Source: an uncultured bacterium
GTDB lineage: Bacteria > Patescibacteriota > Minisyncoccia > UBA6257 > 2-01-FULL-56-20
Length of the DNA: 64,000 bases
Direction: 5' to 3'
NCBI GenBank assembly: GCA_963830935.1
Contig: CAWHOC010000005.1
Span: 1,839 to 65,838 of the forward strand
The notes beneath the pieces were generated by a model that saw only the letters and a list, made by a program, of their open reading frames with translations, was not told where the DNA came from and ran no database searches. Below are positions 17,614 through 37,078 of this stretch, piece after piece. Position 1 is the stretch's first letter; each line of letters opens with the position of its first letter. A program made the position numbers and the translations under genes.

Positions 17614-17717
17614 ACAAGAAATACACGCACAGAAGGATTCCGGAGGCGCGAAGGCGCCGAGGCTTAGCGCGTTTTCAGCAGAAAACGACGCGGCCCTTCT
17701 GTGCGTGTATTTCTTGT
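17614..17717. other. long hairpin H1: 23-bp perfect arms around a 58-nt GC-rich two-hairpin module (same module as in H6)
   Basis: Arms ACAAGAAATACACGCACAGAAGG and CCTTCTGTGCGTGTATTTCTTGT. The interior holds GGAGGCGCGAAGGCGCCGAG and GCGCGTTTTCAGCAGAAAACGACGC. Confidence 0.7.
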
Positions 17718-20369: not shown

Positions 20370-21056
20370 ATGAAATTAAACTTCTTCGGAGACATTTTCT
20401 TTCCGGCGGCGTGCGTGGGGTGCGGGGATTCATTGCCAAGCGGCGTCATATGCGACGCGTGCCTGCAAGGCGTCGATCGGTTCGATACGCTTTTTTGCGG
20501 AACCTGCGCGGCGCGGCTTCCGGAGCGGAAAAAAATATGCCATAAGGACGCGCCGTACCTCCTCGGCGCCGCCGGCGCGTACGACGACGAGCCGCTGCGC
20601 GCGCTCATTCATGCCCTCAAGTTCCAGGGAATGACGGGCGCGGCGGAACCACTCGCCATGATCCTTGCGCACTATATCAAGCGGCTCGATCTTGATCTCG
20701 CCGAATTTGTCGTGACGCCCATCCCGCTTTCCACGCAGCGCGCGCGGGCGCGCGGGTTCAACCAGTCCGCGCTCATCGCGAAGCCCTTCGCCCGCGCGAT
20801 CGGCCTTCCCTTCGAAGAACATCTGCTCGCGCGCATCCTTCATCGCAAACCGCAAAGCGACACGGAGGATATTTTCGAGCGCAGGGAGAACATCAAAGGA
20901 TGCTTCGCGCCCGCGCCCGGCGCAGATGTGCGCGGCAAAAAAATAATTCTCGTTGACGACGTGACCACATCCGGCACGACCTTCGCAGAAGCGGCACGCG
21001 TCGCGAGGGACGCCGGCGCTAAAAAAGTATTCGCTCTCGCGTGCGCGAAGGCATAA
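20370..21056 (+). CDS. comF: ComF-family phosphoribosyltransferase-like competence protein
   Basis: N-terminal CxxC...C...C zinc cluster and C-terminal PRT motif ILVDDVTTSGTT. Confidence 0.85.
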   Translation: MKLNFFGDIFFPAACVGCGDSLPSGVICDACLQGVDRFDTLFCGTCAARLPERKKICHKDAPYLLGAAGAYDDEPLRALIHALKFQGMTGAAEPLAMILAHYIKRLDLDLAEFVVTPIPLSTQRARARGFNQSALIAKPFARAIGLPFEEHLLARILHRKPQSDTEDIFERRENIKGCFAPAPGADVRGKKIILVDDVTTSGTTFAEAARVARDAGAKKVFALACAKA

Positions 21057-21147
21057 AAAAGAGGGATAGCCATCTCGCTCCAGCGTAGCGACCAACGGAA
21101 GTCCCGTGGGAGAACGCCCACTCGCTCAATGACTATCCCTCTTTTTT
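21055..21147. terminator. bidirectional terminator-like hairpin H9 with a 63-nt GC-rich interior
   Basis: AAAAAAGAGGGATAG ... CTATCCCTCTTTTTT, located exactly between convergent stop codons at 21056 and 21156. Confidence 0.6.
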
Positions 21148-21155
21148 ACGATTCC

Positions 21156-23003: not shown

Positions 23004-23157
23004 GTAGAACGAGAATTATATGGATAAGTTACGCGTTTAGTCCGGGCCTTCTCTAGCAAAAATGCCCCACACAACATAGGGCACTCTTTATACGTTTAGG
23101 ATACCCCTTTTGGCCCTTCTCTACAAGATTGCTTTCCCCTATACTGTAGATAAATTT

Positions 23158-23841
23158 ATGACTGGAAAATTCATCGTCATCGAAGGCACGGACGGGTCGG
23201 GGAAGGGAGAACAGACGGTTCGCCTCGCAAAGCGAATGAAAGATTCGGGAATGACGGTCGCACCTTTTGATTTTCCGAGATATGCCGAACCATCCGCTTG
23301 GTTTGTAAGCCAGTTTCTCAACGGCAATTTCGGAACGATCGACGAGGTCGGCCCGAAGACCGCTTCCCTGTTTTATGCACTCGACCGATACGCCGCCGCG
23401 CCGGAGATCCGCAAAGCGCTCACGGAAAGTGATGTCGTGATCTCCAATCGCTATGTCGCATCGAGCTTGGGCCATCAGGGATCGAAGTACGACGACGTGA
23501 ACGAGCGCAAAAAATATTTCGAGTGGAACAATGACCTCGAGTATGGCATCAACGGGATCCCAAAACCAGACCTCAATATCATCCTTCATATCCCCGCGGA
23601 GATCGCGCAAGAACTGGTAGATAAAAAAATGGAGCGTCAATATCTGAGCGGCAAGAAGCGGGATATTCACGAAGCGGACATCCATCATTTAAAGAGGGCC
23701 GAAGAGACGTATAAGCAGCTCGCGGAATTATATCCGAGCGACTTTACCGTCGTGGAATGCGTGGAGAACGGGCAGCTGCTTTCGATCGACGCGGTGCACG
23801 AAAAAGTATGGGCGATCGCCGCAAAGACGCTCGAGCTATAG
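23158..23841 (+). CDS. tmk: thymidylate (dTMP) kinase
   Basis: P-loop IVIEGTDGSGKGEQ and DRY motif. Likely start at MTGKF (the ORF is open from 23110). Confidence 0.85.
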   Translation: MTGKFIVIEGTDGSGKGEQTVRLAKRMKDSGMTVAPFDFPRYAEPSAWFVSQFLNGNFGTIDEVGPKTASLFYALDRYAAAPEIRKALTESDVVISNRYVASSLGHQGSKYDDVNERKKYFEWNNDLEYGINGIPKPDLNIILHIPAEIAQELVDKKMERQYLSGKKRDIHEADIHHLKRAEETYKQLAELYPSDFTVVECVENGQLLSIDAVHEKVWAIAAKTLEL

Positions 23842-23856
23842 TACTATAACGTCGCG

Positions 23857-25539
23857 CTATTCGCTCTTCCCCTGCAGGCGATTCCGCAACTTCTCTTCCT
23901 TGGCAAGGATGGCCTCTTCGGTGCCTCGCCGGGCGAAGCTGTAATCGTTCATATCGACGATCATCGCTTTACTGATAAGCGGCAATTTATCTTTCAATAG
24001 GCGGAACTTTTCCTGCTCGATAAAACGGTAATTCGGATGTCCCTGCGGCCCGGTGCGAAGCTCCGCCTCCCAGAAGAACTGGCGCAGGTTCTGATACTGC
24101 TGGAACCGCGCGCGGTACGCGAGCGGAACGACGTACTGAGCGAGCTCCGGAGAATATGCCTCCAGTTTTTTGAACAACGGTACGATCGATTCCAGCGCCG
24201 CGCGATAGCGCTGCTCGAGCCCCGCCCACACGATCTCTTGTGGCATATCATACCCGTGGCGGACGCTGAAGAGCTGACGCTCCTGCGTCATCATCCGGTG
24301 ACGGTGGAGGTCGCGGTACGCGCCGATGTCCATCAGGATATCGAAACGTACATAGCTGTTCTCGAACGCACGGCCCACTTTGTGCCAGCGCTGGGTGCGG
24401 CCGGAAAGGTACGCGCCGAGCAATTTTTCTTTTTCTTCCGGCGAAAGTTTTTTGGCCTTCGCGATGCACGCGTCCCACTCCGTATGGCTCGCCGCGTAGA
24501 GAATCCCCGCCAGCACTTTTAGTTCCGCATCGGCATCATATTCGACGAGCTTTACCACCGGGCCGGTCGCGGGCACGGCCTCATCGTCCGGCAAAAGATC
24601 TGCATGCGCCGTCTTCACGAAATCACGCGCGATCTGCATGCGATGCCCGAGATATTCCTGATATTGATGCGACTTCTCATCCTGCAGGCGAAGTAGGAGC
24701 GACGGGATCTCCTTGTCGAGCTCCCCGCGGAGCGTGTCCGATATCCACCGGAACTCCCCAAGCTCGTGCGCCGCCATCCGGTTCACCGCATACTCCAGCG
24801 CCTGCGCGTTCCCGCGGAAGCCGACCTGGCCGAGCGTCGCCATCGGCAATATGCCGCGCAACGTATCGAACGCCTTCTTCTCCAGCACGCCCTCCTTCTC
24901 TTCGTAATTCGCCTTCAGCCACACCTTAAGATCCTCGATGAGTGCGGTGTATGTTTCAAAAAGATTGTCGAGGGCGCTCTTGTATTCAGCGAGCAGTCCC
25001 AATTTTTCCAAGTCCGGCTTCGGCGTGTAGTATAAATAATTTCCGCCCACCTTTTTTGCGAAGCTGACGTATCGCGTGGATTTCTCGATCGGTTCCAGGC
25101 CGATACGCTGATCCTCAAGATATTTCATCGCCACCTGCGAGATCCCCCAGAACGCCACGTGCGTGCCCGTCATCTGCGCGATCGAATCGTCGCCGTACTG
25201 CGAAAGCCACTTCACATAGAACGCCTGCGCGCGCTGATTGTTCAAAATATTCTTGAACCCATGCTCGTTGAGAAACGTGATCGTATCCTTCAATTCCTCG
25301 CCGAGCTTCGGATCGGTGTCGATGATCGGCTTCAGATATTCGTCGTGTAAAATGCGCACGAGCGATCCGCTCGCGCGGCTCGCGCGGGAGCAGAGCGCGC
25401 CCACGATCTCCGGCGGCAGATTGCGCAGCACCGAGATGAACCCGTCGAGGTCGCTCACGAACGGACCCAGAAGAAACCGCTCCTCGTCGGTCCATGCTTC
25501 ACTCGGAAAATCGGGGCGGTATGCGGTGTTATCGTTCAT
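23857..25539 (-). CDS. thyX: long-form ThyX-family FAD-dependent thymidylate synthase
   Basis: 560 aa with a ThyX-like RHRMMTQERQ motif in the C-terminal half. Flanked by tmk and dcd. Confidence 0.55.
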   Translation of the reverse strand: MNDNTAYRPDFPSEAWTDEERFLLGPFVSDLDGFISVLRNLPPEIVGALCSRASRASGSLVRILHDEYLKPIIDTDPKLGEELKDTITFLNEHGFKNILNNQRAQAFYVKWLSQYGDDSIAQMTGTHVAFWGISQVAMKYLEDQRIGLEPIEKSTRYVSFAKKVGGNYLYYTPKPDLEKLGLLAEYKSALDNLFETYTALIEDLKVWLKANYEEKEGVLEKKAFDTLRGILPMATLGQVGFRGNAQALEYAVNRMAAHELGEFRWISDTLRGELDKEIPSLLLRLQDEKSHQYQEYLGHRMQIARDFVKTAHADLLPDDEAVPATGPVVKLVEYDADAELKVLAGILYAASHTEWDACIAKAKKLSPEEKEKLLGAYLSGRTQRWHKVGRAFENSYVRFDILMDIGAYRDLHRHRMMTQERQLFSVRHGYDMPQEIVWAGLEQRYRAALESIVPLFKKLEAYSPELAQYVVPLAYRARFQQYQNLRQFFWEAELRTGPQGHPNYRFIEQEKFRLLKDKLPLISKAMIVDMNDYSFARRGTEEAILAKEEKLRNRLQGKSE

Positions 25540-25552
25540 TGGCGCGCGCAGG

Positions 25553-26146
25553 TTATTTTCCGAACTTCATCCACTGATTGTTCTTTTTGAAGTTCTTCCA
25601 GTATTGCGACGCTTGCGGCTTCATCGCGCCAAAATATTTACTGCCCAACGCCTTCTTTCCATACGGATGGTCCGCGGGCGAAGAGAGCGGCGTGAACGAC
25701 ATCTGCGCGATCGGCATCTTATAATAGAGCTTGATCGGCAACGGCGAAACGTTGTGCAGCTCGAGCGTCATCTTCAATTTATTTCCCGGATCGAGATAGC
25801 CCGCCGTCGCGTGGATGATGAGCCCGATGCGCCCGAGCGACGACTTTCCTTCCAACCGCCCCACCATATCATCGCCGACGCCCACCACTTCATAGACCAT
25901 GCCGAGTACGAACTCGCCGGGGTGGAGCACAAACTGTTTTTTATCGTTGATCGTCGCCTTCTCCATGATGTGGTCGATCGGCTCTTTCGGATCAATGCAC
26001 ACATGGCTGTTCGTCTTAAACACCAAAAAATCCGCGCCAAGATGAAGGTCAATCGACGCCGGCTGGATCGCGTGAGGAAAAAGCGGCTCGACGGAGATCC
26101 GCCCGGCCTTGAGAGCCTTCTTGATATCGTGGTCGGAGAGGATCAT
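25553..26146 (-). CDS. dcd: dCTP deaminase
   Basis: MILSDHDIKKAL..., IDLHLG, RLEGKSSLGRIGLIIHATAGYLDPG. Start at 26146 (the ORF is open to 26296 across hairpin H2). TAAAAT lies 8 nt upstream. Confidence 0.9.
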   Translation of the reverse strand: MILSDHDIKKALKAGRISVEPLFPHAIQPASIDLHLGADFLVFKTNSHVCIDPKEPIDHIMEKATINDKKQFVLHPGEFVLGMVYEVVGVGDDMVGRLEGKSSLGRIGLIIHATAGYLDPGNKLKMTLELHNVSPLPIKLYYKMPIAQMSFTPLSSPADHPYGKKALGSKYFGAMKPQASQYWKNFKKNNQWMKFGK

Positions 26147-26184
26147 TGCTTTAGATTTTACTCTAATAAATTGATCCCGCAAAG

Positions 26185-26261
26185 CCCGCTCCACGCAGGA
26201 AAAACCCTTCGCCGAACGGTCATCTGCCTGGAGGCGAAGGGTTTTTCCTGCGTGGAGCGGG
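26185..26261. other. hairpin H2: 29-bp perfect arms, 19-nt loop GAACGGTCATCTGCCTGGA
   Basis: CCCGCTCCACGCAGGAAAAACCCTTCGCC pairs with GGCGAAGGGTTTTTCCTGCGTGGAGCGGG. The core matches H3 at 29 of 31 nt. Confidence 0.75.
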
Positions 26262-26393
26262 TAAGGGGAGTCGGACCCCTGTCGTCTGATTGGCAACCAG
26301 ATGTAATACCGTTATACGATACCCGCTTTACGGATTCATTATATAGAGCTTCGCAAAAAAATCAACGCCGCCGGACAAAAGAACTTGTCGCGA

Positions 26394-27408
26394 CTATTGC
26401 ACGCCTTCAGCCTGCTGATACGCCGCAGCCGAGATGTCCGCGATCGCCTTTTCCTGCGCCGCGATGCTCGTGGTCCCCTTCGTCATTACGCACAACAGGT
26501 AGGGATGCGCCGGGGGCATAGACGATCCGCAATCGTGCAGTTCCCACTGGTACGGCACACCATTCGAAAGATACGAAGCCAAGCCATATTTATGCGCCAC
26601 CGCCGTGGAGCTCGGTACGCCAGCCACGATCCCCTGCGTGAAGGTCGTCTGCGTCAACAGCGCGAGCGCTTTTTCCGAATCATCGCGTGAGAGGTATGTG
26701 GCATTGTAAAGAGTCTTGAACAGGATGGCGTATTGCTGTGGCGTCATGATATCGCTCGTTGAAGCCGTCACGTCGGGGTCGGTCGGAATATCGAGATCGG
26801 AATACACTGCTTGCACTCCTTGTTGCTCGGCCGGGGTCGCAAGCGTGGTGAGCACGTCCGCCGCGTCGTTGTCGGAATATTTGATCATGTACTCGATGAG
26901 TTGCTCGTTCGTATATTCCTGGCCGGGCGTGATACTGCTCGTCGGCGGGATTTCCTGTTGGGTATTGAGATTGGGACTTTCCGCCGGATAGCTATTTTCT
27001 TCCTCTAAAATACTGCTCGTGTTCTCGGCCATCGCGTAATACGCCATCATGATCGGCACCTTCCCCAGGCTCGACGGATAATATTTTTCATCGCCGTTTA
27101 TGCTCGCCCATTGTCCGGTCGTAAAATCGGAAAAATAAACCGACGCGTCAGTGATATCCCCCGCGCTCTTGTCTTGCGAGATCGCCGACTGTATTGCATT
27201 GCAACGGACTGATCCTGAGAAACGTCTTCACACTGCCCAGATTACAACTTATGAGCGGGCTGATGTACTGATATCCCCCAAGCCGCAGCGGCGGCGGGAT
27301 GGTGATGACGGTGGTTACCTTGTTAAGCAGCCACCCGAGACCAAAGCTCCCCGCGCAGGCGAGGATCGCAATAGCCCAATACACTCGTGTTCTGTTCGAT
27401 CTTCCCAT
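26394..27408 (-). CDS. class-A beta-lactamase-like serine hydrolase; frame broken near 27150
   Basis: SxxK (SLGK, just upstream of ORF 26394..27059), SDN (YSDND) and K-Y-G triads. N-terminal TM in ORF 27148..27408. Confidence 0.65.
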
Positions 27409-27472
27409 CCTTCTATATTACTAAATACGCCTCGAGTACGCATCTTGGTGCCTACTTACCCTTTCCAGCCCG

Positions 27473-27537
27473 AAAGAAAAATCATCGTATTCGCCGAATG
27501 GTCATCTGCCCGGAGGCGAATACGATGATTTTTCTTT
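27473..27537. other. hairpin H3: 23-bp perfect arms, 19-nt loop GAATGGTCATCTGCCCGGA
   Basis: AAAGAAAAATCATCGTATTCGCC pairs with GGCGAATACGATGATTTTTCTTT. Same loop module as H2. Confidence 0.75.
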
Positions 27538-27657
27538 GTTGGTGCCCTTCCAACGTCTCCAACTTGAAGGGACGCGCCCCGAGCGAGACCCCACAAGCAT
27601 TCTTGAGAGATTTCGGGGATCCCCTTTCCCCTTCCTTTGGAGGAACCTCGATCACTA

Positions 27658-28268
27658 GGCTACGGGAATGTATGGAGGAGATTTTAGGAGATAGTTCGAG
27701 CGCCGGAAGGACCTCGGTCGCTGTATAAAGCCTTCGGCAAAAACCCAAACAATGCCAAATTTTAGCCGTCGCGACAATGGGTCAAATCGGACAAATCGGA
27801 CACTCCAAGGCCATTTCGGACACCTGTCCGAAATGCAACATGCAACAAATGTAACGCTACGTACGATTTTAAGAAAATGATGTTTTTAGGAAACCGCCTT
27901 CTCGGATGGCTTGAAAAATAAGGGACTTTAGAGATTTTGGAATGTAACGTTCCAAATGCAACGCCAAAAATGTTACAAATGTTACACTGGTTCGGCATAT
28001 AACATTTTGGCACAAATGCACACGGCATAGGCTATTTTTAGTGTGCCATCTTCTATGCCGCGCGAACCTAACAAACGGGACAAAATGGGACACTTTTTAG
28101 GGTGTCCCATTTGGCAAAGAGGCGTGTCTCATTCTGAAAAATTGATGCCCGTAAAATAAGGCTTTTTTGATCAAATGAGACAAATGAGACACAAAACGGG
28201 TGTCTCACGGGAACGCCTCATTTATTTACCTCGGCCTCCCCTAAAATTAGAACTGGGTTCCCGTAGCC
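27658..28268. repeat. AT-rich non-coding array of degenerate tandem 9-mers (AAATNNNAC x2 + AC) bounded by imperfect inverted repeats
   Basis: IR blocks GGCTACGGGAA...ATTTTAGG at 27658-27688 and their reverse complement at 28240-28268. Tandem pairs lie at 27784-27803 (CGG), 27968-27987 (GTT), 28073-28093 (GGG) and 28173-28192 (GAG), with looser versions at 27831-27856 and 28008-28023. Most have a nearby inverted copy. Confidence 0.8.
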
Positions 28269-28303
28269 CCTCTTCCAGTATTGGTACTTTATAATGAAAA
28301 TAC

Positions 28304-28938
28304 ATGCTCGATGTTAACATTGGAGTTATTGTTATCGCCATCACCGCACTCGGATATGTAAGCAATTTTCTGAACTGGCGATTTTTGGATTATGCCCCGA
28401 TCCGTGCACTGTATTACGTTGGCGCCCTCGTGCACGAGACATCGCACGCCATCGCATGCATTCTGACCGGTGCACGGATCGAACAATTTACGGTTTTTTC
28501 AAACCAGCCGCAAGTCGTCCACCGCAAATCACGCCTGCCGATCCTGGGGGAACTCATCATCTCCGCCGCGCCGATTGCCGGAGGGCTACTCTTTTTATTT
28601 TTAGTGAACCGTTATGCGCTGGGTACTATTTTACGGTCCCATCATTCGGTGCGGTTTATGGATGGAAAATATTCCTTCTTGTCCCGTTTGGACTGCTGTC
28701 GCAAATCAATCTGCTTCAATGGCAAAGCTGGGTGATGATCTTTCTATCATTTAACTCTGGAGCTATGCTCGGTCCGTCAATGCAAGACCTGAAGAACGTC
28801 TGGCCTATGCTTATAGTGTTGCTTTTTTTCCAATCTCCGACAATTACTGAATTCGGGGCTGCCACGATAATTATGATCATCGTGAACATAATGATCCAGG
28901 CTATTGCCATAATCGGCGTGCAAATAACGAAACATTGA
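28304..28938 (+). CDS. polytopic membrane HExxH metalloprotease-like protein (M50B-like); frame broken near 28620
   Basis: HETSHA motif inside a TM region. ORFs 28304..28735 and 28456..28938 join. TATAAT lies 8 nt before the ATG. Confidence 0.5.
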
Positions 28939-29002
28939 TAGGGAATAAAAATTTGACAACAAATAGATATATTAATATAATATCACATAGAGGTGATGTA
29001 TC

Positions 29003-29359
29003 ATGAAATGGTTCGTGTTGTTCGCTGGGATCGTTCTTTTATCGCCTCCGACTGCCGACAGTCAGCCCGTCGATAGTCCGTGCGCAGGGAAAGCGGGCAT
29101 TGAATCTATTCCGCCCGAAATTCGGAAAGAGTTTCGGCAGGCACAGATGGACCGGGATCTCCAAGAGTCGATTCGAAAAGAAATTGAGATCGCCAACCGA
29201 CCCAGATCAGGCCTGAAGCTTACGATGGCCACGACTGACAGGGATGGAAGAATCGTTGACTATCGAATCATCGTGGCTTCCGCTCCGGGGTGCGTACTAG
29301 GGTGGATGCCTATCAATCCACCTGCAAACGCCAAACAACGGAGTCGTGTGTACTACTGA
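29003..29359 (+). CDS. small secreted hypothetical protein
   Basis: Signal peptide MKWFVLFAGIVLLSPPTADS. AGAGGTGA Shine-Dalgarno. Confidence 0.5.
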   Translation: MKWFVLFAGIVLLSPPTADSQPVDSPCAGKAGIESIPPEIRKEFRQAQMDRDLQESIRKEIEIANRPRSGLKLTMATTDRDGRIVDYRIIVASAPGCVLGWMPINPPANAKQRSRVYY

Positions 29360-29436
29360 TACCTTTCATATATCACTTTGGAAGGTATCTTTTTTATGTC
29401 TTATAACAACACTATGCGCGTCGCGCTATTGACCGC

Positions 29437-32400
29437 TCACAGCGACTTTAAGAGTGTGCCAAGTTCGTCGAATAACCCCTCAAGCGAACGGGATATAATC
29501 GCTGTTTGATCAACCGATTCCGCAGACGACGATCGGCTATTCGCGGCGAGCGACGAACCCGGGACGCTGACTGCGGATGTGCTATCATCACCGCCGCAGC
29601 TCGGATCCTGCGGGTAGAAATCGCAATAATCAGAGCAGTCAGGGGTTGGATCAATATCGCATGCATCCGTTGAATTCGAAGCGCCGCTGCACACGGGATC
29701 TTGTGCATTCAGCGAACAATAATCCTGGCATGCGGTGCCGGAGGGATCGCTCGCGCAGGAAGTGCTCGTCGCACACGTCGGATCGTCGGGAGTTTGATTA
29801 CAATAATCTTCTTCGATGTTGGCGGGTGCGTCCGGACACACTGGATTGTTTGGGTATAAGTTACAATCTACGATACAACTTCCATCCGCCCCCTGTATCA
29901 GGCCGGCGCCGCATGTTCCCTGGCACGCGCCTGTTGGCATCGCGAGCGAGCTGCCGTCCGGATTGACGCAGCTTACCGTACCGTCGCTCCCACACGAACA
30001 ATCGCTTCCATCGGGGTAGGTACACTGCATTACTCCTTGGGCATTCGGAGTGCATGTCTGATTTGTCGCCGACGGGCATTCCGGGCTCGCAACCGGATCG
30101 TCGGGGTTGCACTCGTCTGTCGGGGGAGGAGGCGGGGTTATTGGAGCATAAGTTTCGGGAGCGGAGCGTACATTTATATGGACTCCCGTTTGCGTCCAGA
30201 CATGTGCCTTGGGGAACGGTTACCGGACAGGAATACTGACCGCTTTGCCCGCAATTCACCGGCGCACAGGTATAATTATTTCCATAGTTGTCGGTACAAT
30301 AACCAGGAGTCGTGCCGTCGTTAGTCGGAGTATAATTGTCCACAATTGTTGCAGATGTCGTCGCATTCGGCATCCTGCACCCGCCGAGCGCCGTCGGATC
30401 GTTGATCCAACCACTATCAAGCTCGTCCGCCGTGCACTGTCCGACGATACTCCAAGTGTTATCCATGAAGACAACAGGGGCAGTCCCGGAAGGAGGATAC
30501 CATGGACTCGTGGCAAGAGGAGCTCCGGTCCCGACGCAACCAACGGAAGAAAGTGGAAGAGCCTGCTTCTGCTGGATCGCCTTTATAGTATTGTAAATAT
30601 TCTGAGCAATGGGGATCGGACCGTTGTTTCCTCCTCCTTGCATGGGTGAGTTTGTATTGCCATAGTCATCCCCGAGACCGAATATGCCATGACCCAACTC
30701 GTGTTCATCCGTACCTGCAGCGTTCAAGCTCGTAAGGGCTGCTCCCGTTGGCCAAAACTGTGTATTGAACATATCAACAACCACAGATTTGCCAGCGTTC
30801 AAAGCGTTCACGATTGCCGAAGCGGTTCCCGCAGGAACGTATTGGGAATAGCCGGAGTAGCCGGATTGAGCGATAGTGGTGGATAGATATACCGTCTGCG
30901 CGGCGAATTCATCCTGCTCGCTTACCGATACCCCATTCACTATGGTGTTGTTTTGTCCATCCGGTATGTTTCCTGCGCTCAGCACGACGAGTGCTCCGGC
31001 ATCCGAATTGTCTGTTGGTACCGGCAGCACCCCAGCTGTGTCGGCCTGATAATAGGGAGAAAGTCCATTGATGACGACGTTGATTATTTCATCCTGAGCG
31101 GCTTCGGGAGTGGTCGATCCCCAATTGATATTGTTGGGATTCGTCATTGAAGGATCCACGATGATATTGAAATCGGTCGATATGTGAGGAATGGTACCGT
31201 CGGGGCTAACCAAGACGGGGATTGCAATTCCTGCGGCGGATCCCGTGGTGCCAGGGGCTTGCACGGAGCACTGGCCGCCGTTGTTCGCCGGTGCTCCGGT
31301 CACCGCCTGGTCCGCAAGGCCGAAGTAGATTGCGACTTTTCCATTTTCAGACGCCATTCCAGAAATCTCGCCGAGCGCGTCAGTGGTCTCGGTAATCTGA
31401 TATCCGGCTTGCCCTAAAGCGTTTGCAATATAGTTTATAAACTGGATCGGGGTATTCCCACCAAGCACGTTCACCAAAGTACCATCCACACCAGCGGCAA
31501 TCGATGATTGGTGATATGGCGCAGTAGCAAGAAGCGACGATGGATTGTACGCGACCACCGCGTAATTTGACCCAGTAGTATATGATGTGTCAGTAAAGCT
31601 CGTAGCAGAGGTCGTGGCAATTTGTGTACCGTCACGATACACCTGATAAAGAATTTCATTCCCCGGATCTGCGTAGGTCTCTGTCAATGGATTCGCGGAA
31701 GCGGTCCATGAAAGCGACATTTTTGACGACCCGACGTTCGTGATGGTGAAATCTCCCGGAGGGGTGGGGCCGCCCCATGTGGAGCTGGTAATAGTCACTT
31801 GCAATTGCGGGGATACAAGGCCAACCACTCCGACTGCATTCACTGGCGCGACGCAGTAATAATACGTGCCTAAAGGAACGTTGACATCGGCATAGCCGTC
31901 AAGGACGTGGCCAACATCGTTGGGCACACCCGTCATAACAAGATCTGCGGGAGTCGCAGCGCACCCCGAAGTCGTGGTCCGATACAGATTCCATGTCAGA
32001 GACTGATATTGTTCATCCGTACTCTCATACCAATTCATTTCCGCAGAATCCCCTACCGTTATCGCATAAAGATTCGAGACGGGAACGACGGTTTCCGGGT
32101 TCGAAAAAGCGCTACCGGTGATCTGAGAGGCCCACGGGAGAACCGAAAGATATCCATCAATGATTTGGTAGAGTGGCATATTTTCGGTGTTCGCATCGTA
32201 AGGAACAATATAGCTTGGCAAAACAGAACCAGTGTAGGTCGTTGTGGCTACAACTCCGATTTCTGCCGGTTGCAGCAACCCATTAACGTAGGTGGATGAG
32301 CCAAAAATTTCGTACCCAAGGATGCCTGATGCATCGACGGAAGGGCTCCATGTGAGAGTGATGCTTGAGAGAGTATTATTCGTTTCCTCGATATTGCCGA

Positions 32401-33052
32401 TGAGCGATGGGGTGTTGCCGACAGTGGTGATGGTCGCCTCTATGGGTGCGGTAACAGGGCCGTAATAGGGGGACGTCCCTTGATCCAGCGCGTCGGCACA
32501 ATAATAGTAAGTACCCGGAGAGAGATTTTTGTCAGACAACATAGGATAATCGTCCTTAGGGAACCATGATCCCACAGAGACCGAGCTCACACTGCAGTCC
32601 GGGGAAAGAGATCTATAAAATATATATGTTAAATTAGTTCCATTGAGACCGTTCAAGGGCGCAGACTCACCAGTCGAAAAGCTTACGGTATTACCGGAAA
32701 CCGAAATGGAAAATCCGGTTACCGGACCAGGCGCTGGATAGGCGGATGCGGTGATAGGGAGCGACTCGGATGACGCCCCTGCGGAATTGTAGGCGACGAC
32801 ATAATAGACATACGGCACAGCTTCCTGCTGACCATTGCCGCCAGGAAGAGGCTGATATTCCTCAAGCCCAGTGTCCGTGAACGACGTCTGCGTGGTAGTG
32901 CTCACTTCGACGTTATCTCGATAGACGCCGTAATATGTCGCGGAGATACTGCTCGTGGACACTTGCCATGTGAGGGAAATCGACGAAGCGGTACCTCCAA
33001 CAGCCTGAAGATTTATCGGAGGTAATAATGAAGAAGAAATAAGTGGCGTCAA
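29437..33052 (-). CDS. giant surface protein: FN3 repeats, M64-like HExxH metallopeptidase motif and a Cys-rich C-terminus; frame broken near 30020
   Basis: Several FN3-like units (SSISLTWQ...YGVYRD..., MSLSWTAS...YQVYRDG). DEHELGHGIFGLGDDYG resembles the HEFGHxxxGLxDEY motif of peptidase M64. The C-terminal ORF 29437..30030 is rich in CxxxDP motifs. No signal peptide on the 33052 TTG start. Confidence 0.65.
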
Positions 33053-33127
33053 CGAGATCGGTTTAAGCGGCGATCGTGTAATCGGTCCACTTGCAACTAC
33101 TCAGTGCTTCCGACAGCGTAGGAGATT

Positions 33128-34648
33128 TTAAAAGAGGGCATGCTCTGATAATGAGGGTTTGTAGTTTAGTATTAAGTGAAACAAGGAGGGCTTCCTCCTG
33201 TGAGACACTCGCTCGTACTGGCAGAAGTGGTAGAGGGCGGAGATGATCGTCGTGGTGCTTGCCGCCGGCGTAGTTGTGGCGCTAGAAGCATTCACGATCG
33301 CCGAAGCGCTGTCGCTCCCACCCGCTCCTGAACAGGTGATCGTATATGTTGATGTTCCTACCGATGCAGCGATCTGCGTTGATTCCCCCGAGAGCGGCTG
33401 TTCTCCGGACCATGCTCCCGATGCCGTGCACGCGGTGGCATTTTGTGAAGACCACTCGAGAACCACGGAGGCGGACGTGGAATTAGTTATCAAGGACGCG
33501 GCCCCGCCAATGGTGACTGTCGGGGCAGGCGTCGTCGTGGAAGTGGACGCGGATGCAATCGTTACCACCACTTGCGCCGAAGGGATGCCGATGATGGTAC
33601 CGCTGGTGCTCACTGCCGCGACCACATAGTAGTACGTGCCCGGAGCGAGACCTGTATTGGTGTAGAATGTCCCGCCCACCACCGATGCGACGCTGTTGTT
33701 CGTAGCATTCGGGGTAAACCCTGAGGTCGTGCTGCGATATACGTTGTATCCCCACATGCCGGTTGGGGTATATGCGGTCCAGGAGAGAATCGCCGAGGTT
33801 CCGCTCGCGACCGCCGTCAGATTTAGTTCTTGGGTGGAAGAAATATTTTCGGAAACGGGTGTCGACGAAGCAGATCCGGAGAGAGTGTAAGAAACCACAT
33901 TGCTTGTACCGTTGGCGTTCTCTATGGAGATATTCTGAGCTGAAGTAGCGCCCGGGACGGAGGGCATTGTGAAACTCAGACTGGTACCTCCGTCGCTGCT
34001 CGGCACCTCGGGGACTGTGACGTATGTCCCCTGCCCGCTACTACCGGCACCTATATTGATTTGATTGGAACTCGTAAAGTTCAACCCTGCTACCGTGACC
34101 GTGGCTCCCGCTATACCGCTCGCGGGGACGATGCCCATGATTTCGGGAACAGTGCTTGCGATATCAAGCACGCTTACCGTCACCGACGCCGGGTTACTCG
34201 TGCCACCGGGACCAGAACAGGTAACCGTATAGGTGTATGACCCAATCCCTGCCGGACTCTCAAAAAGGGATCCACTCGCAGCAAGGGAATCGCTACCCAA
34301 GGAATCTGAGGCAGTACACGCCGTCGCGTTGGCACTGGTCCACGTGATCGTCGCCGCCTGACCGAGAGGAATGATCTGTGGACTGGCGGATATGCTCGCG
34401 GTGGGAACGGCGGGGGGGGTTATATTGCAAACCGTTTCGCTACACCCATCAGGTTCGATGACACTATGACCACCATAGGGACAAACGGGCACTACTAATG
34501 GGCAGGCAGGTGCAAAAGTGCCGCTGGGAGCAATCTCGGCGATTATCGCCCGTGCGGGAGGGACGGGGAAAAATGTATATCCTATAAGGAACAATAAAAA
34601 CACGCTGGCGACCGAGAGTAAAAATATATGGAACCTCTTCATGCTCAT
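33128..34648 (-). CDS. secreted surface protein with IPT/TIG and FN3 domains
   Basis: Signal peptide FHIFLLSVASVFLLFLIGY. IPT-like IMGIVPASGIAGATVTVAGLNF. FN3-like ILSWTAYTPTGMWGYNVYRST...GTYYYVVAAV. The last about 40 residues look out of frame, so it may continue into 29437..33052. Confidence 0.65.
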   Translation of the reverse strand: MSMKRFHIFLLSVASVFLLFLIGYTFFPVPPARAIIAEIAPSGTFAPACPLVVPVCPYGGHSVIEPDGCSETVCNITPPAVPTASISASPQIIPLGQAATITWTSANATACTASDSLGSDSLAASGSLFESPAGIGSYTYTVTCSGPGGTSNPASVTVSVLDIASTVPEIMGIVPASGIAGATVTVAGLNFTSSNQINIGAGSSGQGTYVTVPEVPSSDGGTSLSFTMPSVPGATSAQNISIENANGTSNVVSYTLSGSASSTPVSENISSTQELNLTAVASGTSAILSWTAYTPTGMWGYNVYRSTTSGFTPNATNNSVASVVGGTFYTNTGLAPGTYYYVVAAVSTSGTIIGIPSAQVVVTIASASTSTTTPAPTVTIGGAASLITNSTSASVVLEWSSQNATACTASGAWSGEQPLSGESTQIAASVGTSTYTITCSGAGGSDSASAIVNASSATTTPAASTTTIISALYHFCQYERVSHRRKPSLFHLILNYKPSLSEHALF

Positions 34649-34716
34649 GCCATTGTGCGGAGCTTCTTATAGAATCCCCACTATTAAATCTATAGTAACA
34701 CGTTAAGCATAGATTA

Positions 34717-34725
34717 GGGGGGGGG
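34717..34725. repeat. G9/C9 homopolymer in the divergent intergenic region
   Basis: GGGGGGGGG lies about 70 nt upstream of the surface-protein ATG (34648). On that strand it reads TTGCCCCCCCCC. Confidence 0.9.
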
Positions 34726-34822
34726 CAACACTCTGTCCTTGCCTTCTTCGCCCCTTCGTCGCATTGTAGCGACCAGCAAGGACGCTCTGGACTCGTCCCA
34801 CCGTTGCGTCATCAATTGTAGT

Positions 34823-36159
34823 ATGACCAACCAAATTAAGGGGTCGGCAGGAGCGGCGACCTCAACCAATCAACCGCTGCCGGTAAAGGTCGCATATTGC
34901 TTGTATGCAAGAAAATCAACGGAATCAGAGGAGCAGCAAGTCCTTTCGATAGACAGCCAGATCAAGGAGATGATCCAGATCGCCGAGCGGGATGGGCTCA
35001 CGATCGCGGAGATCCGGAAGGAATCCCATTCAGCAAAAGCCGTCGGCCAGCGCGAGGTGTTCAATGAGCTCCTGAAAGACATCCGCTCCGGCAAATTCAA
35101 CGGCATCCTCACCTGGGCACCGGATCGCTTTCGAGAAATGCTGGTGACCTCGGAGCTCGTGGACCTCATGGATCAGAAGGCGCTCGTGGAGATACGGACC
35201 TTCTCCCAGAAATTCACCAACAACCCAAGCGAGAAATTCATGCTGATGATCCTGTGCTCTACGGCAAAACTGGAAAATGACAACAAGTCGGAAAATGTGA
35301 AGCGGGGCCTCCGGACGCGGTGCGAACAAGGGTTCGCCCCAGCATGGCCCCGACTGGATATCTGAACGAGAAGCGAAAGGACAAACCGTGCGAAGTGATC
35401 GTTGATCCGCAGCGAGCGCCCGTGATCAAGCAGATGTTCGAGAAGGTGGCGAACGAGCAATGGTCGGGGCGGAAGCTCTACGCATGGCTGCGGCACGATG
35501 TGAAATTCAAGACCGCCACGGAAAAATTCCTTGCGCTCGGAAATATCTATATGCTTCTCAAAAAGACTTTCTACTATGGCGTCTTTGAATACCCGGTCGG
35601 ATCGGGAAACTGGTACACGGGGCAACATACGCCCATCATCACAAAAGAGCTATATGACCGAGTGCAGGAACAACTCGTCCGGAGCGAGATAAATAAGAAC
35701 AATAAGGAGTTCGCCTTTACGAAGCTCATATCATGCGGGGTCTGCGGATCGGGCGTCACGGCGTGCGAGAAGTACAAAGACCAGCAGAACGGAGACGTGC
35801 ATCGCTACGTATACTACCGCTGCACGAAAGCGAAAGATCCTCACTGTCCAGAGGGGTATATCAAGGAGGAAGAAATCATCGAACAGATCCTGAAGATCCT
35901 TGATACGCTCGACATCAGCGAACTCGGCATCAGGCAGAAATTCAAGGATGAGATATCGCGATACAACAAATTCCGAAGGATCGCTCTGGGCAAGAGCCGG
36001 GAGAAATCTGACCCAGAGGAATTCGATGCCAAATCGTATGCCGTCTATCTCCTGACCGAAGGATCGATTGCAGAAAAGCGTGAGCTGCTATCCAACCTTA
36101 AGAGCAGACTGATCCTCAAGGATAGAGTGGTCACGATAGAAGCCGGAGCGGAAAAATAA
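34823..36159 (+). pseudogene. large serine recombinase, decayed
   Basis: Resolvase N-domain YARKSTESEEQQVLSIDSQ. The recombinase/zinc-ribbon part lies in ORF 35320..36159, with a frame break near 35335. The expected DRLSRNAGDLGA motif is only readable in an alternative frame across about 35124-35160; the in-frame text is DRFREMLVTSE. Confidence 0.7.
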
Positions 36160-36179
36160 ATACTATCGTTCCTCACCAG

Positions 36180-36795
36180 CTATTCTTTAACACTGAACGT
36201 TGCAGGTAAAATTCCACCGTTCCGCCAGGCTTCTCCGAGAGATAAATATTGATGGCCAAAATCTTCACCAGCTTTGGTGGTATGCATGAGTTGGGCTGTG
36301 TACTTTACTGAAAACGTATCCGATGGGATTATGTCCTGATGAATCCTGATCAGCAAATACAGATCGGCCATTTCTACTGAAGAATATAGCTCTTCATAAT
36401 CCTGCAAGAACATGGCCATATCCATACCGTCGGTCATGTCGAAGCTCACAAAGACGACGAGCGTAGGGAGGCCTTGATGATTGGCTAATTGAGACATCGC
36501 CTTACCGTGATGCCTCTCTAGTTTGCTTCTGTGATTTCGGTCCCTCTTTTTTGAAATTGCTGCAAGTTCCTCATATGAGATCTCCGGATTATACGTCGGC
36601 ACATTTGCGTCAACGCAGTGATTTGACCTCACATATGGCGATGACCTCCCCGGCACTATTCAGGACCTCATAGTCGGGCGTCCTTGTATCCTTAACTTCC
36701 AACACTTTCTTGAGTGTCAGAGCATACCAACGCTCGAGCACAATTTTGATTGCCTTTTCACCAAGCTCACTTTGATATTGTTCGAGTTTCTCCAT
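36180..36795 (-). CDS. PD-(D/E)xK nuclease-fold protein; frame broken near 36620
   Basis: PDYEVLNSAGEVIAICEVKS carries the PD...E-x-K signature. ORFs 36610..36864 and 36180..36656 join. Confidence 0.5.
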
Positions 36796-36897
36796 ATGGA
36801 GAATATTCTTCCTCCGAACTTCCGCCCTTGCAAGGCGGGTTGCCCGATCGCCTGCGCGGGTCATGGACCAACGTCCCTTGAACCGCGCCCTGACTTG

Positions 36898-36969
36898 TGC
36901 CCCCGCGAAGAATCGAACTTCGATTACAAGATCCGCAATCTTGCGTCCTATCCGTTGAACGACGAGGGC
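36898..36969 (-). tRNA. tRNA-Arg (anticodon GCG)
   Basis: Manual cloverleaf: acceptor GCCCTCG/CGGGGGC (one G-U), D-arm GTTC-AACGGATA-GGAC, anticodon arm CAAGA-TTGCGGA-TCTTG, T-arm CGAAG-TTCGATT-CTTCG, discriminator A. No encoded CCA. Confidence 0.85.
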
Positions 36970-36975
36970 AAACGC

Positions 36976-37042
36976 AACCGGATGTCCTTTTGAGACGGAA
37001 ATGCCACGTTGAAACGTGACCGTCTCAAAAGGACATCTGGTT
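36976..37042. other. hairpin H4: 23-bp stem with a nested CACGTT-gaa-ACGTG hairpin
   Basis: AACCGGATGTCCTTTTGAGACGG pairs with CCGTCTCAAAAGGACATCTGGTT. Lies 7 nt from the tRNA 5' end. Confidence 0.65.
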
Positions 37043-37078
37043 GTTTATTGTTGATAATAAAAGAACAAGAGAAGGATA

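Follow-up and report, generated by a model that had tools for sequence, protein, structure and literature searches.

The tiny genomes of Patescibacteria (CPR) are generally regarded as nearly repeat-free, and transcript ending and processing in these bacteria are very little understood. Bidirectional intrinsic terminators carry a G+C-rich stem between an A-run and a T-run, are symmetric for both strands, and are found just past the 3' ends of genes or in the gap between two convergent ones; their loops canonically span 3-8 nt. Integron attC sites are likewise hairpin-forming, lie at gene 3' ends and vary in sequence among copies. They conserve the base of the stem (R''/R' boxes) and bulges, vary in the centre, and occur in arrays beside an integrase. 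As Elhai et al. reportedly described in 2008, cyanobacterial SDRs (small dispersed repeats) are dispersed non-coding sequences of ~20-30 nt located inside hairpins. REP and REPIN elements, which are linked to RAYT transposases, are short, dispersed, multi-copy extragenic palindromes that form hairpins in single-stranded DNA or mRNA, are often found at gene ends and turn over within the genome (PMC3116915). REPINs conserve the recognized arms, the REP sequences, and vary the spacer (PMC3116915). Template-switch mutagenesis (TSM) is a mutational process, not an element: it perfects imperfect inverted repeats and builds full hairpins by reverse-complement copying of adjacent sequence (PMC7202029, PMC10710096), so that quasipalindromes become perfect (PMC7202029) and a whole perfect hairpin can be created in one event (PMC10710096).

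Here we describe two hairpins, H2 and H3, in a 64-kb window, that is, the whole stretch of DNA that was analysed. They belong to what is apparently an undescribed repeat family of ultra-small Patescibacteria, termed F1. Both hairpins, including the perfect arms and shared core noted in the first-pass annotation, were re-found by an inverted-repeat search, and no other perfect inverted repeat with close spacing in the window is as long. H2 (26185-26261, minus strand) is located directly 3' of a tRNA-Gly(GCC) gene, and its 29-nt arms (26185-26213 and 26233-26261) are 100% complementary. H3 (27473-27537, minus strand) has 23-nt arms of equally perfect complementarity (AAAGAAAAATCATCGTATTCGCC / GGCGAATACGATGATTTTTCTTT; 27473-27495 and 27515-27537), and each hairpin encloses a 19-nt loop. 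The conserved 31-nt apices, at 26208-26238 in H2 and 27490-27520 in H3 (both minus strand), lie on the same strand and are identical at 29/31 positions. In H2, the clamp TTCGCC/GGCGAA surrounds a loop that reads UCCAGGCAGAUGACCGUUC in the minus-strand transcript; H3 carries the variant UCCGGGCAGAUGACCAUUC, which differs at the two most variable loop positions. The earlier statement that no U-tract follows either stem is misleading, since T-runs sit within the 3' arms of both hairpins (GGCGAATACGATGA-TTTTTCTTT in H3 and GGCGAAGGG-TTTTT in H2), each with a mirrored A-run. Nested in H2 is a terminator-like unit, AAAAACCC-TTCGCC-loop-GGCGAA-GGGTTTTT, and the outer 15 bp of H2 prolong the palindrome into the 3' end of tRNA-Gly. 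This 3' end, CCCGCTCCA, is part of an H2 arm, and the last 9 nt of the tRNA gene, including the encoded CCA, pair within H2. A generic terminator scan of the window for loops of 3-8 nt called neither H2 nor H3. A covariance model built from the F1 family, run over the window with filters off, scored the two hairpins at 73.9 and 66.6 bits and detected no other copies, the next-best match being 17 bits.

The gene between the hairpins encodes a Beta-lactamase2-family hydrolase (PF13354; 26394-27408, minus strand) with an ORF that is frameshifted near 27200-27220. The distances given earlier hold, with H3 ~65 nt and H2 about 132 nt from this ORF, and both hairpins are directly oriented around this single gene and match synteny breakpoints relative to L032, a syntenic locus brought in through BLAST. 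From this arrangement arose the idea that the hairpins are attC-like cassette boundaries or recombination sites that mobilize the hydrolase gene, which we regard as very improbable. The hydrolase gene lies between two tRNA units and is outside the repeat element. Overlooked in the first-pass annotation, the tRNA-Gly(GCC) gene (26253-26326, minus strand) sits between the hydrolase and H2, inside the supposed cassette, with its own sigma-70-like promoter (26338-26365, minus strand; TTGATT-16-TATAAT), which is conserved at 100% in locus L077 and at ~92% in L032 and L063. H2 belongs to the 3' end of tRNA-Gly, which it overlaps. When the proposed check on relatives was run, L032 proved to have this hydrolase gene with no F1 hairpin on either side, and L077 has hydrolase, tRNA-Gly and F1 together, followed by a different downstream sequence. 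No F1 copies were present at the loci of close homologs of the window's dcd, and synteny upstream of dcd was not kept.

H3 now follows no called gene; on one side it borders an integrated element and on the other the promoter region of the hydrolase. A ~9.4-kb segment (27548-36896) is missing from L032; it contains a large serine recombinase split over two ORFs (34739-36159, plus strand), an M50B-like peptidase, a 1063-aa fn3 protein and iteron-like repeats. We interpret this segment as an integrated serine-recombinase element that parted H3 from tRNA-Arg(GCG) (36897-36969, minus strand), its inferred original upstream partner and the integration target of the element. A junction remnant, GGGCAC-CAAC (27538-27547, minus strand), resembles a tRNA-Arg 3' end, lies 5 nt before the H3 arm and has as its homologue GGGGGCAC-CGAAGCAAC in L032, where the site is unoccupied. 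Most likely H3 is a former hairpin just 3' of tRNA-Arg that was moved 9.4 kb by element insertion, and it can be placed at a gene 3' end only by way of this probable ancestral arrangement. A search of the island ends for a tRNA-Arg fragment or a long direct repeat found no more than a brief resemblance at the GGGCAC(C) junction and a loose one over 23-30 nt. The breakpoint at H3 relative to L032 is accounted for by insertion of the serine-recombinase element at tRNA-Arg. Moreover, F1 hairpins across the family are single and unpaired around genes, and in contrast to attC sites their centre is conserved, their stems are perfect and their stem base is variable. No attC feature, neither conserved stem-base boxes nor extrahelical bases, was found in F1, and the sole recombinase nearby is the serine recombinase of the inserted element. 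A cassette bracketing the hydrolase is already contradicted by these observations.

Scans of public data returned 30 genome matches and 81 metagenome loci, which yielded 73 unique F1 hairpins, all of them apparently in Patescibacteria; viral contigs contained 0 matches. Further copies of the core thus exist, and the first-pass notion of a conserved loop on a variable stem describes a genuine family. The loop is 19 nt long in all members, with the consensus GAACGGTCATCTGCCTGGA closed by (TT)CGCC/GGCG(AA). It is identical in 59/73 members, a conservation partly forced by the search patterns, and locus pairs retrieved by pattern are biased to intact cores; positions that the search pattern left free are nearly invariant. 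Variation is highest at the fourth loop position (63 A, 6 G, 3 C, 1 T). The same consensus recurs in lineages whose conserved genes share only about 70% identity, and unrelated stems carry an identical core, both within and between genomes. This loop conservation points to recognition by some factor, in keeping with the earlier suggestion of a protein-recognized hairpin. The lack of an assignment to a known family was also borne out. In an Rfam 15 search of the window at gathering thresholds, just two tRNAs reached threshold; a permissive search returned only sub-threshold generic hairpins (mir-2007, 27.7 bits against a threshold of 100; DUF3800-IX, 23.9 against 36.8). Neither type of search gave a credible match in the F1, F2 and F5 regions, and our search of the literature found no description of such elements. 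Resemblances of CAGAUGA/GGA to hammerhead, box C/D, SRP-RNA and CsrA-site motifs came without Rfam support or the required partner motifs. An inner helix in the loop lacks support: it is only weakly predicted, and the variants of GG to TA, GA, AG or GC are uncompensated, although the pattern had fixed the partner positions. Searches with 10-mers outside the hairpins for a trans RNA partner or master copy gave chance-level matches and, within an L31-like coding sequence, one match of 12-13 nt that was judged coincidental.

By contrast to the loop, the arms of F1 hairpins are unrelated between loci. Their median length is 24 bp, and 95.9% of stem cells are paired compared with 63.5% in shuffles. 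Changes on both sides of a pair occupy 379 cells compared with 101 in shuffles, a value attained in 0/500 shuffles. Each of the four Watson-Crick pair types is represented at stem positions 3-10, which correspond to columns 3-10 of alignment A6 and their partner columns 42-49. The cells that depart from Watson-Crick pairing comprise 13 G.T, 26 A.C and 22 transversions, and F1 stems therefore bear no RNA wobble signature; selection on the stems at the RNA level only was rejected, as the transcribed strand shows no G.U excess. A T-run begins 8-20 nt after the loop in 60/73 members, compared with 14% at control positions, and a mirrored A-run is present in 58 members; 13/73 members lack the A-run/T-run. 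The palindrome continues beyond the T-run in 48/60 cases and reaches 3-9 nt into tRNA ends. Ordinary terminators of the same loci are perfect A-run/T-run palindromes, too. One chimeric F1 copy, L118, has non-complementary arms.

Of the 73 F1 hairpins, 60 have the 3' end of a gene facing them at a distance of at most 120 nt, and in 22 of these the gene is a tRNA gene; gene context was called with a codon-usage model, and a cruder ORF-based context led to the same conclusions. The first-pass annotation had likened H2 and H3 to something other than ordinary terminators, a view that does not stand against terminator geometry in 60/73 members and a position at a gene 3' end in 60/73. Like bidirectional intrinsic terminators, F1 hairpins combine a G+C-rich stem, flanked by A-run and T-run and symmetric for both strands, with a location just beyond a gene's 3' end or in the space between convergent genes. 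They share with them the stem-loop, the T-run and the position 3' of a transcription unit, but not the short loop. The 19-nt F1 loop is far larger than canonical loops, which speaks against a terminator reading, and its sequence is conserved from locus to locus and genome to genome; the arms span 20-34 bp of perfect Watson-Crick pairing and often run past the T-run into neighbouring genes. Copies with a gene on one side only split 33:9 in orientation, the majority presenting the loop as UCCAGGCAGAUGACCGUUC in the transcript, and the related F4 loops follow tRNAs in the same orientation in 3/3 cases. Orientation is not tied to replication: GC/AT skew around the copies is inconsistent, and copies are opposite in 5/8 same-contig pairs.

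Comparison of orthologous sites revealed that stems co-vary and that the hairpin may flip. Between L014 and L044 the loop is flipped within homologous stems, and between L072 and L108 the entire hairpin is inverted. In a tRNA-Ile set, each arm mirrors the substitutions and indels of the other. F1 may be replaced at an orthologous site by an ordinary terminator, by another conserved-apex family or by nothing. For example, the terminator of an L31-like gene has an outer stem common to an ordinary hairpin (L018) and F1 hairpins (L096, L097), and F1 is switched to F2 despite 90-95% flank identity (L073 versus window position 17614). Empty sites are L095, L051 and L054, and empty alleles retain one arm only; alignments of filled against empty alleles contain no direct duplications at the boundaries. 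At secondary orthologous sites, which had not triggered retrieval, F1 was missing or replaced in 17 cases and decayed in 1, a ratio as compatible with recent, repeated copying as with selection; L116 is one clearly decaying copy. At least five analogous conserved-apex families of the same architecture coexist, four of them with copies in the window. These apex families are discrete and without intermediates, and loops at an edit distance of 1-5 from the F1 consensus numbered zero. The trinucleotide UCC is retained in the independently found F4, L030b and L042 variants, whereas F7 loops read UCG.

With its conserved apex, locus-specific perfect arms, flipping and replacement by sister families, this architecture reverses that of REP/REPIN elements. 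F1 hairpins do resemble the latter in being short, dispersed, multi-copy palindromes at gene ends that turn over. Yet they have no GTAG-type motif, no RAYT gene was noticed in an incidental, non-systematic look at the fetched loci, and a REP/REPIN identity was rejected given that arms are unrelated between loci and a shared palindromic arm sequence is missing. Similarly, F1 does not qualify as a MITE, as just a 4-6 bp clamp is shared and boundary duplications are missing. Cyanobacterial SDRs belong to another phylum, have other sequences and are not known as the apex of a terminator palindrome with A-run/T-run arms. F1 hairpins match TSM-generated hairpins in mirrored substitutions and indels, one-arm empty alleles and outward extension of the palindrome (PMC7202029, PMC10710096); template switching alone leaves the loop identity at dozens of loci unexplained.

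We think that F1 hairpins are probably bidirectional palindromes of the intrinsic-terminator type, with arms perfected by template switching and an apical module recognized by a factor. They would form a lineage-specific dispersed family at transcription-unit 3' ends within a clade of Patescibacteria, with an excess of copies directly behind tRNA genes. One layer would be the locus-specific arms, with A-run, G+C-rich stem and T-run in the design of the small-loop terminators of these genomes, presumably held perfectly Watson-Crick at the DNA level. It is likely that template switching at quasipalindromes uses one arm or flank as the template for the other and pushes the palindrome outward into the ends of tRNA genes or CDSs, and that arm-to-arm recombination also perfects the arms and flips the loop. 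We infer template switching as the arm-perfecting mechanism, and judging by their geometry F1 hairpins would terminate transcription. The second layer would be an apical module of 27-31 nt, (TT)CGCC plus the 19-nt loop plus GGCG(AA), the sequence of which is probably constrained because a conserved trans-acting factor recognizes it. Such a factor would most likely read the loop on the transcript, where four fifths of the one-sided copies present UCCAGGCAGAUGACCGUUC; the module may also be copied between hairpins. It is awkward for a purely RNA-level reading that the 33:9 bias is not absolute and that hairpins flip with the loop intact. No candidate for the factor came to light.

Alternatively, the apex might be a miniature selfish copy-paste module of 27-31 nt that colonizes the loops of existing palindromic terminators or seeds new ones, a possibility we hold tentatively. 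It would spread by template switching between hairpins through CGCC/GGCG microhomology, or by means of a hairpin-specific enzyme; its sequence would be kept solely for mobility, and termination would be a property of the host hairpin. The identical core on unrelated stems, the coexistence of discrete families, the patchy occupancy of orthologous sites (the L31-like gene, the F1-to-F2 switch and the empty sites), the decaying L116 and the chimeric L118 all favour this explanation. However, no transposase or other linked enzyme and no target-site duplications were found, the size is far below that of known MITEs and viral contigs lack copies, while the transcription orientation bias and tRNA enrichment suggest a host-level role. 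The identity of the consensus across lineages of ~70% identity also counts against it, and some recognition constraint is therefore needed anyway. About equally tentative is a novel class that combines both ideas, sequence-specific apical modules on locally made perfect palindromes, copied or seeding by template switching and read by a factor, possibly RNase P acting on a permuted acceptor-end mimic. If so, these hairpins would be "programmable" terminators that also mark the 3' ends of tRNA and mRNA for processing or decay.

We consider two further explanations unlikely, and to a similar degree. The apex could be an RNA-processing signal, a circularly permuted tRNA acceptor end acting as a cis external guide sequence for RNase P or as the site of another endonuclease. 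The external-guide-sequence principle of RNase P was reportedly established by Forster and Altman in 1990. The transcript would read stem-GCC|UCC(N)...UUC|GGC-stem, with a G1-C72-like closing pair followed by N73-C74-C75 and the remaining loop as a "5' leader", and a cut within the loop would open up the terminator hairpin, so that 3' exonucleases could enter on single-stranded RNA to mature tRNA 3' ends or degrade mRNA. This layout fits F1, at positions that are fixed by the search patterns, which also force the invariance of UCC and the closing pair. The 22/73 F1 and 3/3 F4 copies directly 3' of tRNAs, the bias that places UCC in RNA, the large unstructured loop, and the variability of the A76-equivalent fourth position with UCC kept in F4, L030b and L042 are in line with such a signal; the conserved central GGCAGAUGACCG, the UCG of F7 loops, the 9/42 one-sided copies in opposite orientation, and U at N73 and C at N-1, which are not preferred RNase P determinants, are not. 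The other explanation holds that the 19-bp asymmetric sequence, in duplex form or single-stranded at the tip of an extruded cruciform, would be bound by a putative DNA-binding protein, either a polar transcription roadblock like mTERF or TTF-I or a structure-specific protein that stabilizes or processes long palindromes. DNA-symmetric arms without a wobble signature, palindromes that run past the transcribed T-run and intact loops in flipped copies would agree with a DNA-level site, but orientation is biased to transcription and not to contig direction, as the same-contig pairs demonstrate, and no candidate protein was found. To our knowledge, there is no bacterial precedent for terminator-embedded protein sites of this kind.

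Many tRNA and protein genes have terminators with one conserved 19-nt loop, which implies that a sequence-specific factor may act at 3' ends, and the F1 system offers a natural setting in which to study template-switch generation of hairpins in bacteria. The apex families can serve as readily searchable markers of gene 3' ends in these MAGs, and perhaps also for lineage typing.

The first-pass annotation placed the hairpins H2 and H3 correctly, and their arms are perfect as it described, pairing over 29/29 bp in H2 (26185-26213/26233-26261) and 23/23 bp in H3 (27473-27495/27515-27537), each around a 19-nt loop. It was also right about the common 31-nt core, which lies on the same strand in both (26208-26238 and 27490-27520; 29/31 identical). 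Among perfect inverted repeats with close spacing, no others in the window are as long as H2 and H3. A covariance model of the hairpin family to which they belong (F1), run on the window with filters off, found these two copies only, at 73.9 and 66.6 bits, the next match scoring 17 bits. Over the window, Rfam reported two tRNAs alone, and a permissive search gave only sub-threshold generic hairpin matches.

The pattern CGAANGGTCATCTGCCNGGAG, scanned against one genome for each species, returned 30 loci. Seven had no flanking stem and were scattered over unrelated phyla at about the chance expectation. In the other 23, palindromic arms surround the core, imperfectly in a few, and 21 of these cluster, at 2-9 copies per MAG, in five MAGs of Patescibacteria, whose labels are Paceibacterota, Parcubacteria, Minisyncoccia and, once, 'Saccharibacteria'; the two singletons, L007 and L025, are labelled delta proteobacterium and 'uncultured bacterium'. 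A metagenome scan with loop positions 4-6 and 16 left free found 81 further loci, and a scan of viral contigs gave 0 matches. Further copies, which the first-pass annotation had proposed to look for, thus exist in genomes and metagenomes alike. Removal of duplicates and the requirement of a stem of at least 8 bp left 73 unique F1 hairpins. Their loop is GAACGGTCATCTGCCTGGA in 59/73, and the clamp is TTCGCC in 35/73 and CTCGCC in 14/73. Stems have a median of 24 bp and are fully perfect in 25/73, with arm sequences unrelated from locus to locus. The earlier suggestion of an unknown family with a conserved loop and variable stems is upheld and extended by these 73 unique hairpins, which fall outside Rfam.

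The stems co-vary. In a fixed-register alignment of 1,168 stem cells, standard pairs occupied 95.9% of cells versus 63.5% in shuffles, and both sides had changed in 379 cells versus ~101, a value reached by 0/500 shuffles; most stem positions show all four Watson-Crick pair types. Because most loop positions are fixed by the search patterns, we also looked for copies outside these patterns. In 830 kb, no hairpin loop differed from that of F1 by an edit distance of 1-5, and F1 is therefore a discrete family. The loop positions that the search pattern left free are nearly invariant among the 73 hairpins. The F1 apex appears to be a sequence-constrained module, and this constraint is robust after allowing for ascertainment bias. 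Its consensus is identical across lineages whose conserved genes are only ~70% identical, and, one decayed example apart, each copy is either whole or exchanged in its entirety, from which we infer that some conserved trans-acting machinery reads the apex sequence.

The remark that no U-tract directly follows either stem is misleading, because T-runs are present inside the arms of both, each with an A-run as its mirror (AAAGAAAAA…TTTTTCTTT in H3, AAAAACCC-core-GGGTTTTT in H2). Across the family, a T-run begins 8-20 nt (median 13) past the loop in 60/73 hairpins, compared to 14% at random positions, and is mirrored by an A-run in 58/73. Ordinary terminators of the same genomes are perfect A-run/T-run palindromes with loops of 3-9 nt, for example, CAAAAAGCGCCGG-ctttcc-CCGGCGCTTTTTG; F1 is alike in design, with a large apex added. 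In the syntenic relative L032, the stretch immediately 3' of dcd (L032:4586-4673) is a perfect palindrome of 38 bp around a 12-nt loop, an illustration that very long perfect palindromic terminators are normal in this lineage.

Gene calls came from a log-odds model of codon usage, and tRNA calls from ARAGORN. In 60/73 the F1 hairpin has a gene 3' end facing it within 120 nt, and in 22 of the 60 this end is that of a tRNA, the last 3-9 nt of which are often overlapped by the arm. Hairpins lie between convergent genes in 18/73; one-sided copies place the loop UCCAGGCAGAUGACCGUUC in the transcript in 33/73 and the complementary loop in 9/73. Orientation is independent of contig direction, with same-contig copies opposite in 5/8 contig pairs, and local GC skew around the copies is inconsistent. 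At the DNA level the arms are symmetric: non-Watson-Crick cells comprise 13 G.T, 26 A.C and 22 transversions, and the transcribed strand thus carries no G.U signature. In 48/60, the palindrome reaches 1-16 nt past the T-run, a part that a terminated transcript would not include.

Orthologous sites were identified by colinear matching of both 250-nt flanks of each F1 hairpin at 70-95% identity. We observed an identical hairpin in 19 cases, F1 in the same orientation with a changed stem and an essentially unchanged core in 27, a flipped F1 in 5, an empty site in 3 and other sequence in 14. In a set of loci at tRNA-Ile (L022, L026, L048, L093), each arm substitution or indel is mirrored in the opposite arm. 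In L014 and L044 the tRNA-Pro is identical and the arms are homologous, but the loop is inverted, and between L072 and L108 the whole hairpin is inverted, its single mismatch included. The 'other' outcomes include ordinary small-loop terminators, other apex families and one visibly decayed F1. This last copy, in L116 (orthologous to L046:5806-5874; flanks 88% identical), has the loop GAACTGTCGTCTGTAGGTA with 5 changes and an imperfect stem; individual copies can thus lose constraint. Two 'empty' alleles (L095, L054) keep a homolog of a single arm, the one beside the downstream gene, so that the filled allele corresponds to the empty allele plus the loop and the neighbouring sequence copied in inverted form. 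Template switching during DNA replication, proposed earlier for the perfect arms, would explain the arms but leave the shared loop unexplained.

L018, with a 6-nt loop, and L096 and L097, with F1, have the outer stem AAAAATAC/GTATTTTT in common at the terminator of an L31-like gene. The L31-like coding sequence (HP(E/K)YF...V(I)CACGN; L018:~460, L080:~265, L096:~5191, L097:~933), which by motif alone we take to be ribosomal protein L31, contains a 12-13-nt match to the F1 loop, AACGGTCATCTGC, with an F1 hairpin 200-600 nt away in 4/4 loci; we judged this match coincidental. In L118 (1559-1750), the F1 core lies directly 3' of tRNA-Arg(TCG) between two non-complementary arms. Its 5' arm is like those of F1 hairpins in L057 and L078 and its 3' flank is unrelated, and L118 might be a chimera of two F1 copies that recombined.

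When every hairpin of the fetched DNA with a long stem and a large loop was clustered by its apex, further families emerged, F2, F4, F5, F6, F7 and one with a 9-nt loop, each with perfect arms that are unrelated between loci. F2 (13 members; outer arms 16-33 bp) has an apex of 56-95 nt, CGGAGSCNCGAAGGNGSCGAG plus a variable inner hairpin, and occurs at window 17614-17717 and 59344-59466, L032:4706-4813, L008:4987-5113, L014:4476-4590 and L058:2820-2946. Because the apex holds two inner hairpins, the whole would form a three-way junction. F2 occupies sites orthologous to F1 elsewhere, 3' of tRNA-Gly-GCC in L032 and 3' of tRNA-Ile in L008; the F2 copy at window 17614 has F1 as its counterpart in L073, with flanks 90-95% identical. 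F4 (apex GACATTAATCTTTCAGGA) has the GCC/GGC clamp of F1 and lies directly 3' of tRNAs in 3/3 cases, in the orientation of the F1 majority. F7, GAATTATTCTTATCACGA and variants co-varying around a TCTT tetraloop, was found in L078, L086 and L032, and the 9-nt loop family, GCAGATTAA, in L013, L045 and L050. The layout GCC|GA[AC]…TCT…[CG]GA|GGC is common to F1, F4 and F7. F5 has an apex of ~36-63 nt, ...TCGCTCCARCGTAGCGACCAACGGAAGTCCCGTG...ACTCGCTCA (window 21054-21148, L009:6063-6159, L088:6659-6736), and stands in place of F1 at one orthologous site (L010 versus L053). The 21-nt F6, GACGG-AAATRCCACGTTGRAACGTGA-CCGTC, occurs at window 36975-37043 (core 36981-37037) and L096:3315-3401; the window copy lies between the upstream gene stop and the tRNA-Arg 5' end, where the syntenic L032 has no hairpin. 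Rfam searches of the F2 and F5 regions gave no match, and the literature searched contains no description of these hairpin families.

On structural and positional grounds, the best-supported reading of the sequences is that F1 hairpins are palindromes of the bidirectional intrinsic-terminator type, placed at the ends of genes and of tRNAs in particular, with arms most plausibly made and preserved at the DNA level. They are kin to intrinsic terminators and dispersed extragenic palindromes, with an architecture that inverts that of REP/REPIN elements and that is undescribed in Rfam 15 and in the literature searched. The machinery reading the apex may serve the host at the RNA level, as the bias in orientation with respect to transcription and the enrichment at tRNAs suggest. 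Alternatively, it may serve only the spread of the module itself, as a copy-paste or mobile component, with which the patchy occupancy of sites, the coexistence of sister families and the discreteness of F1 are consistent. A more specific idea, on evidence that is thin and partly forced by the search design, is that the transcript GCC|UCC(N)…UUC|GGC imitates a tRNA acceptor end in permuted form, so that RNase P would be able to cleave the loop of the terminator; in keeping with this, the loop varies most at its fourth position, the equivalent of A76.

The first-pass annotation had regarded the two hairpins as a possible cassette boundary around the beta-lactamase-like hydrolase gene (26394-27408), and had missed a tRNA-Gly(GCC) (26253-26326, minus strand) between this gene and H2. 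This tRNA has its own promoter-like site (26365-26338), and its last 9 nt, CCCGCTCCA, form part of the H2 arm. With the tRNA inside and the hydrolase merely between two tRNA units, each ending, or formerly ending, in an F1 hairpin, we reject the cassette; the bracketing is incidental. Relatives also argue against it. In L077 the 3' end of the hydrolase, the promoter and the tRNA-Gly are those of the window (100% identity through CCCGCTC); next comes an F1 hairpin whose 31-nt core is identical but whose arms are unrelated, and the region downstream is a different one. L032 has an F2 hairpin at the same position.

L032, reached via its dcd homolog, is syntenic with the window in the order sigma factor, dcd, tRNA-Gly, beta-lactamase-like gene, tRNA-Arg, next gene and HU. 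From the hydrolase start to tRNA-Arg there are ~50 nt in L032; in the window, H3 and ~9.4 kb intervene. Read on the minus strand, the unoccupied junction in L032 is tRNA-Arg …GGGGGCAC then CGAAGCAACAAAAGG, and the window reads …GGGGGCAC then AAGTCAGG on the tRNA side and …GGAAGGGCAC then CAAC-AAAGAAAAATC, running into the H3 arm, on the far side. From these junctions, H3 most likely once lay 5 nt past tRNA-Arg and was displaced by integration of an element. The arrangement so predicted, with the tRNA-Arg 3' end leading straight into an F1 core, is present in L118 and L038. The minus-strand order in the window is accordingly F6 hairpin, tRNA-Arg, integrated element, H3, putative hydrolase pseudogene, tRNA-Gly, H2 and dcd. 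H2 also lies at a rearrangement junction, because, on comparing window 23110-26146 with L032:3370-4591, dcd is inverted in the window and tmk and a long (560-aa) ThyX-like gene are interposed between the sigma-factor gene and dcd. Directly after H2, a weak promoter-like TTGCGG-16-TAAAAT (26155-26182, minus strand) lies ~8 nt before the dcd ATG and would yield a leaderless or near-leaderless dcd mRNA.

The ~9.4-kb segment (27548-36896), absent from L032 and abutting the tRNA-Arg 3' end, is probably a mobile element that integrated at this site. Its genes specify a large serine recombinase (34739-36159) with Resolvase, Recombinase and Zn-ribbon domains, split over two ORFs, as well as an M50B-like peptidase and a 1063-aa protein with fn3/RGI-lyase domains, alongside ORFs of 197 aa (Cys-rich) and 506 aa. 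The recombinase ORFs overlap at 35320-35365. The recombinase and the beta-lactamase-family gene (PF13354; frameshift near 27200-27220) carry a single frameshift each, and these split genes may be either pseudogenes or assembly indel errors. The segment ends share a loose 23-30-nt similarity (GGGCGCG..TTCAAG..GACGTTGG). Its ORF-poor end (27783-28190) contains the short tandem motifs GTCCGATTT (twice), GTCCCATTTTGTCCCGTTT, GTCTCATTT (twice) and AACATTTGT repeats, which resemble iterons or operator sites; the window has 7 occurrences of GTCNSATTTG versus 1.6 expected, and 5/7 lie within this end.
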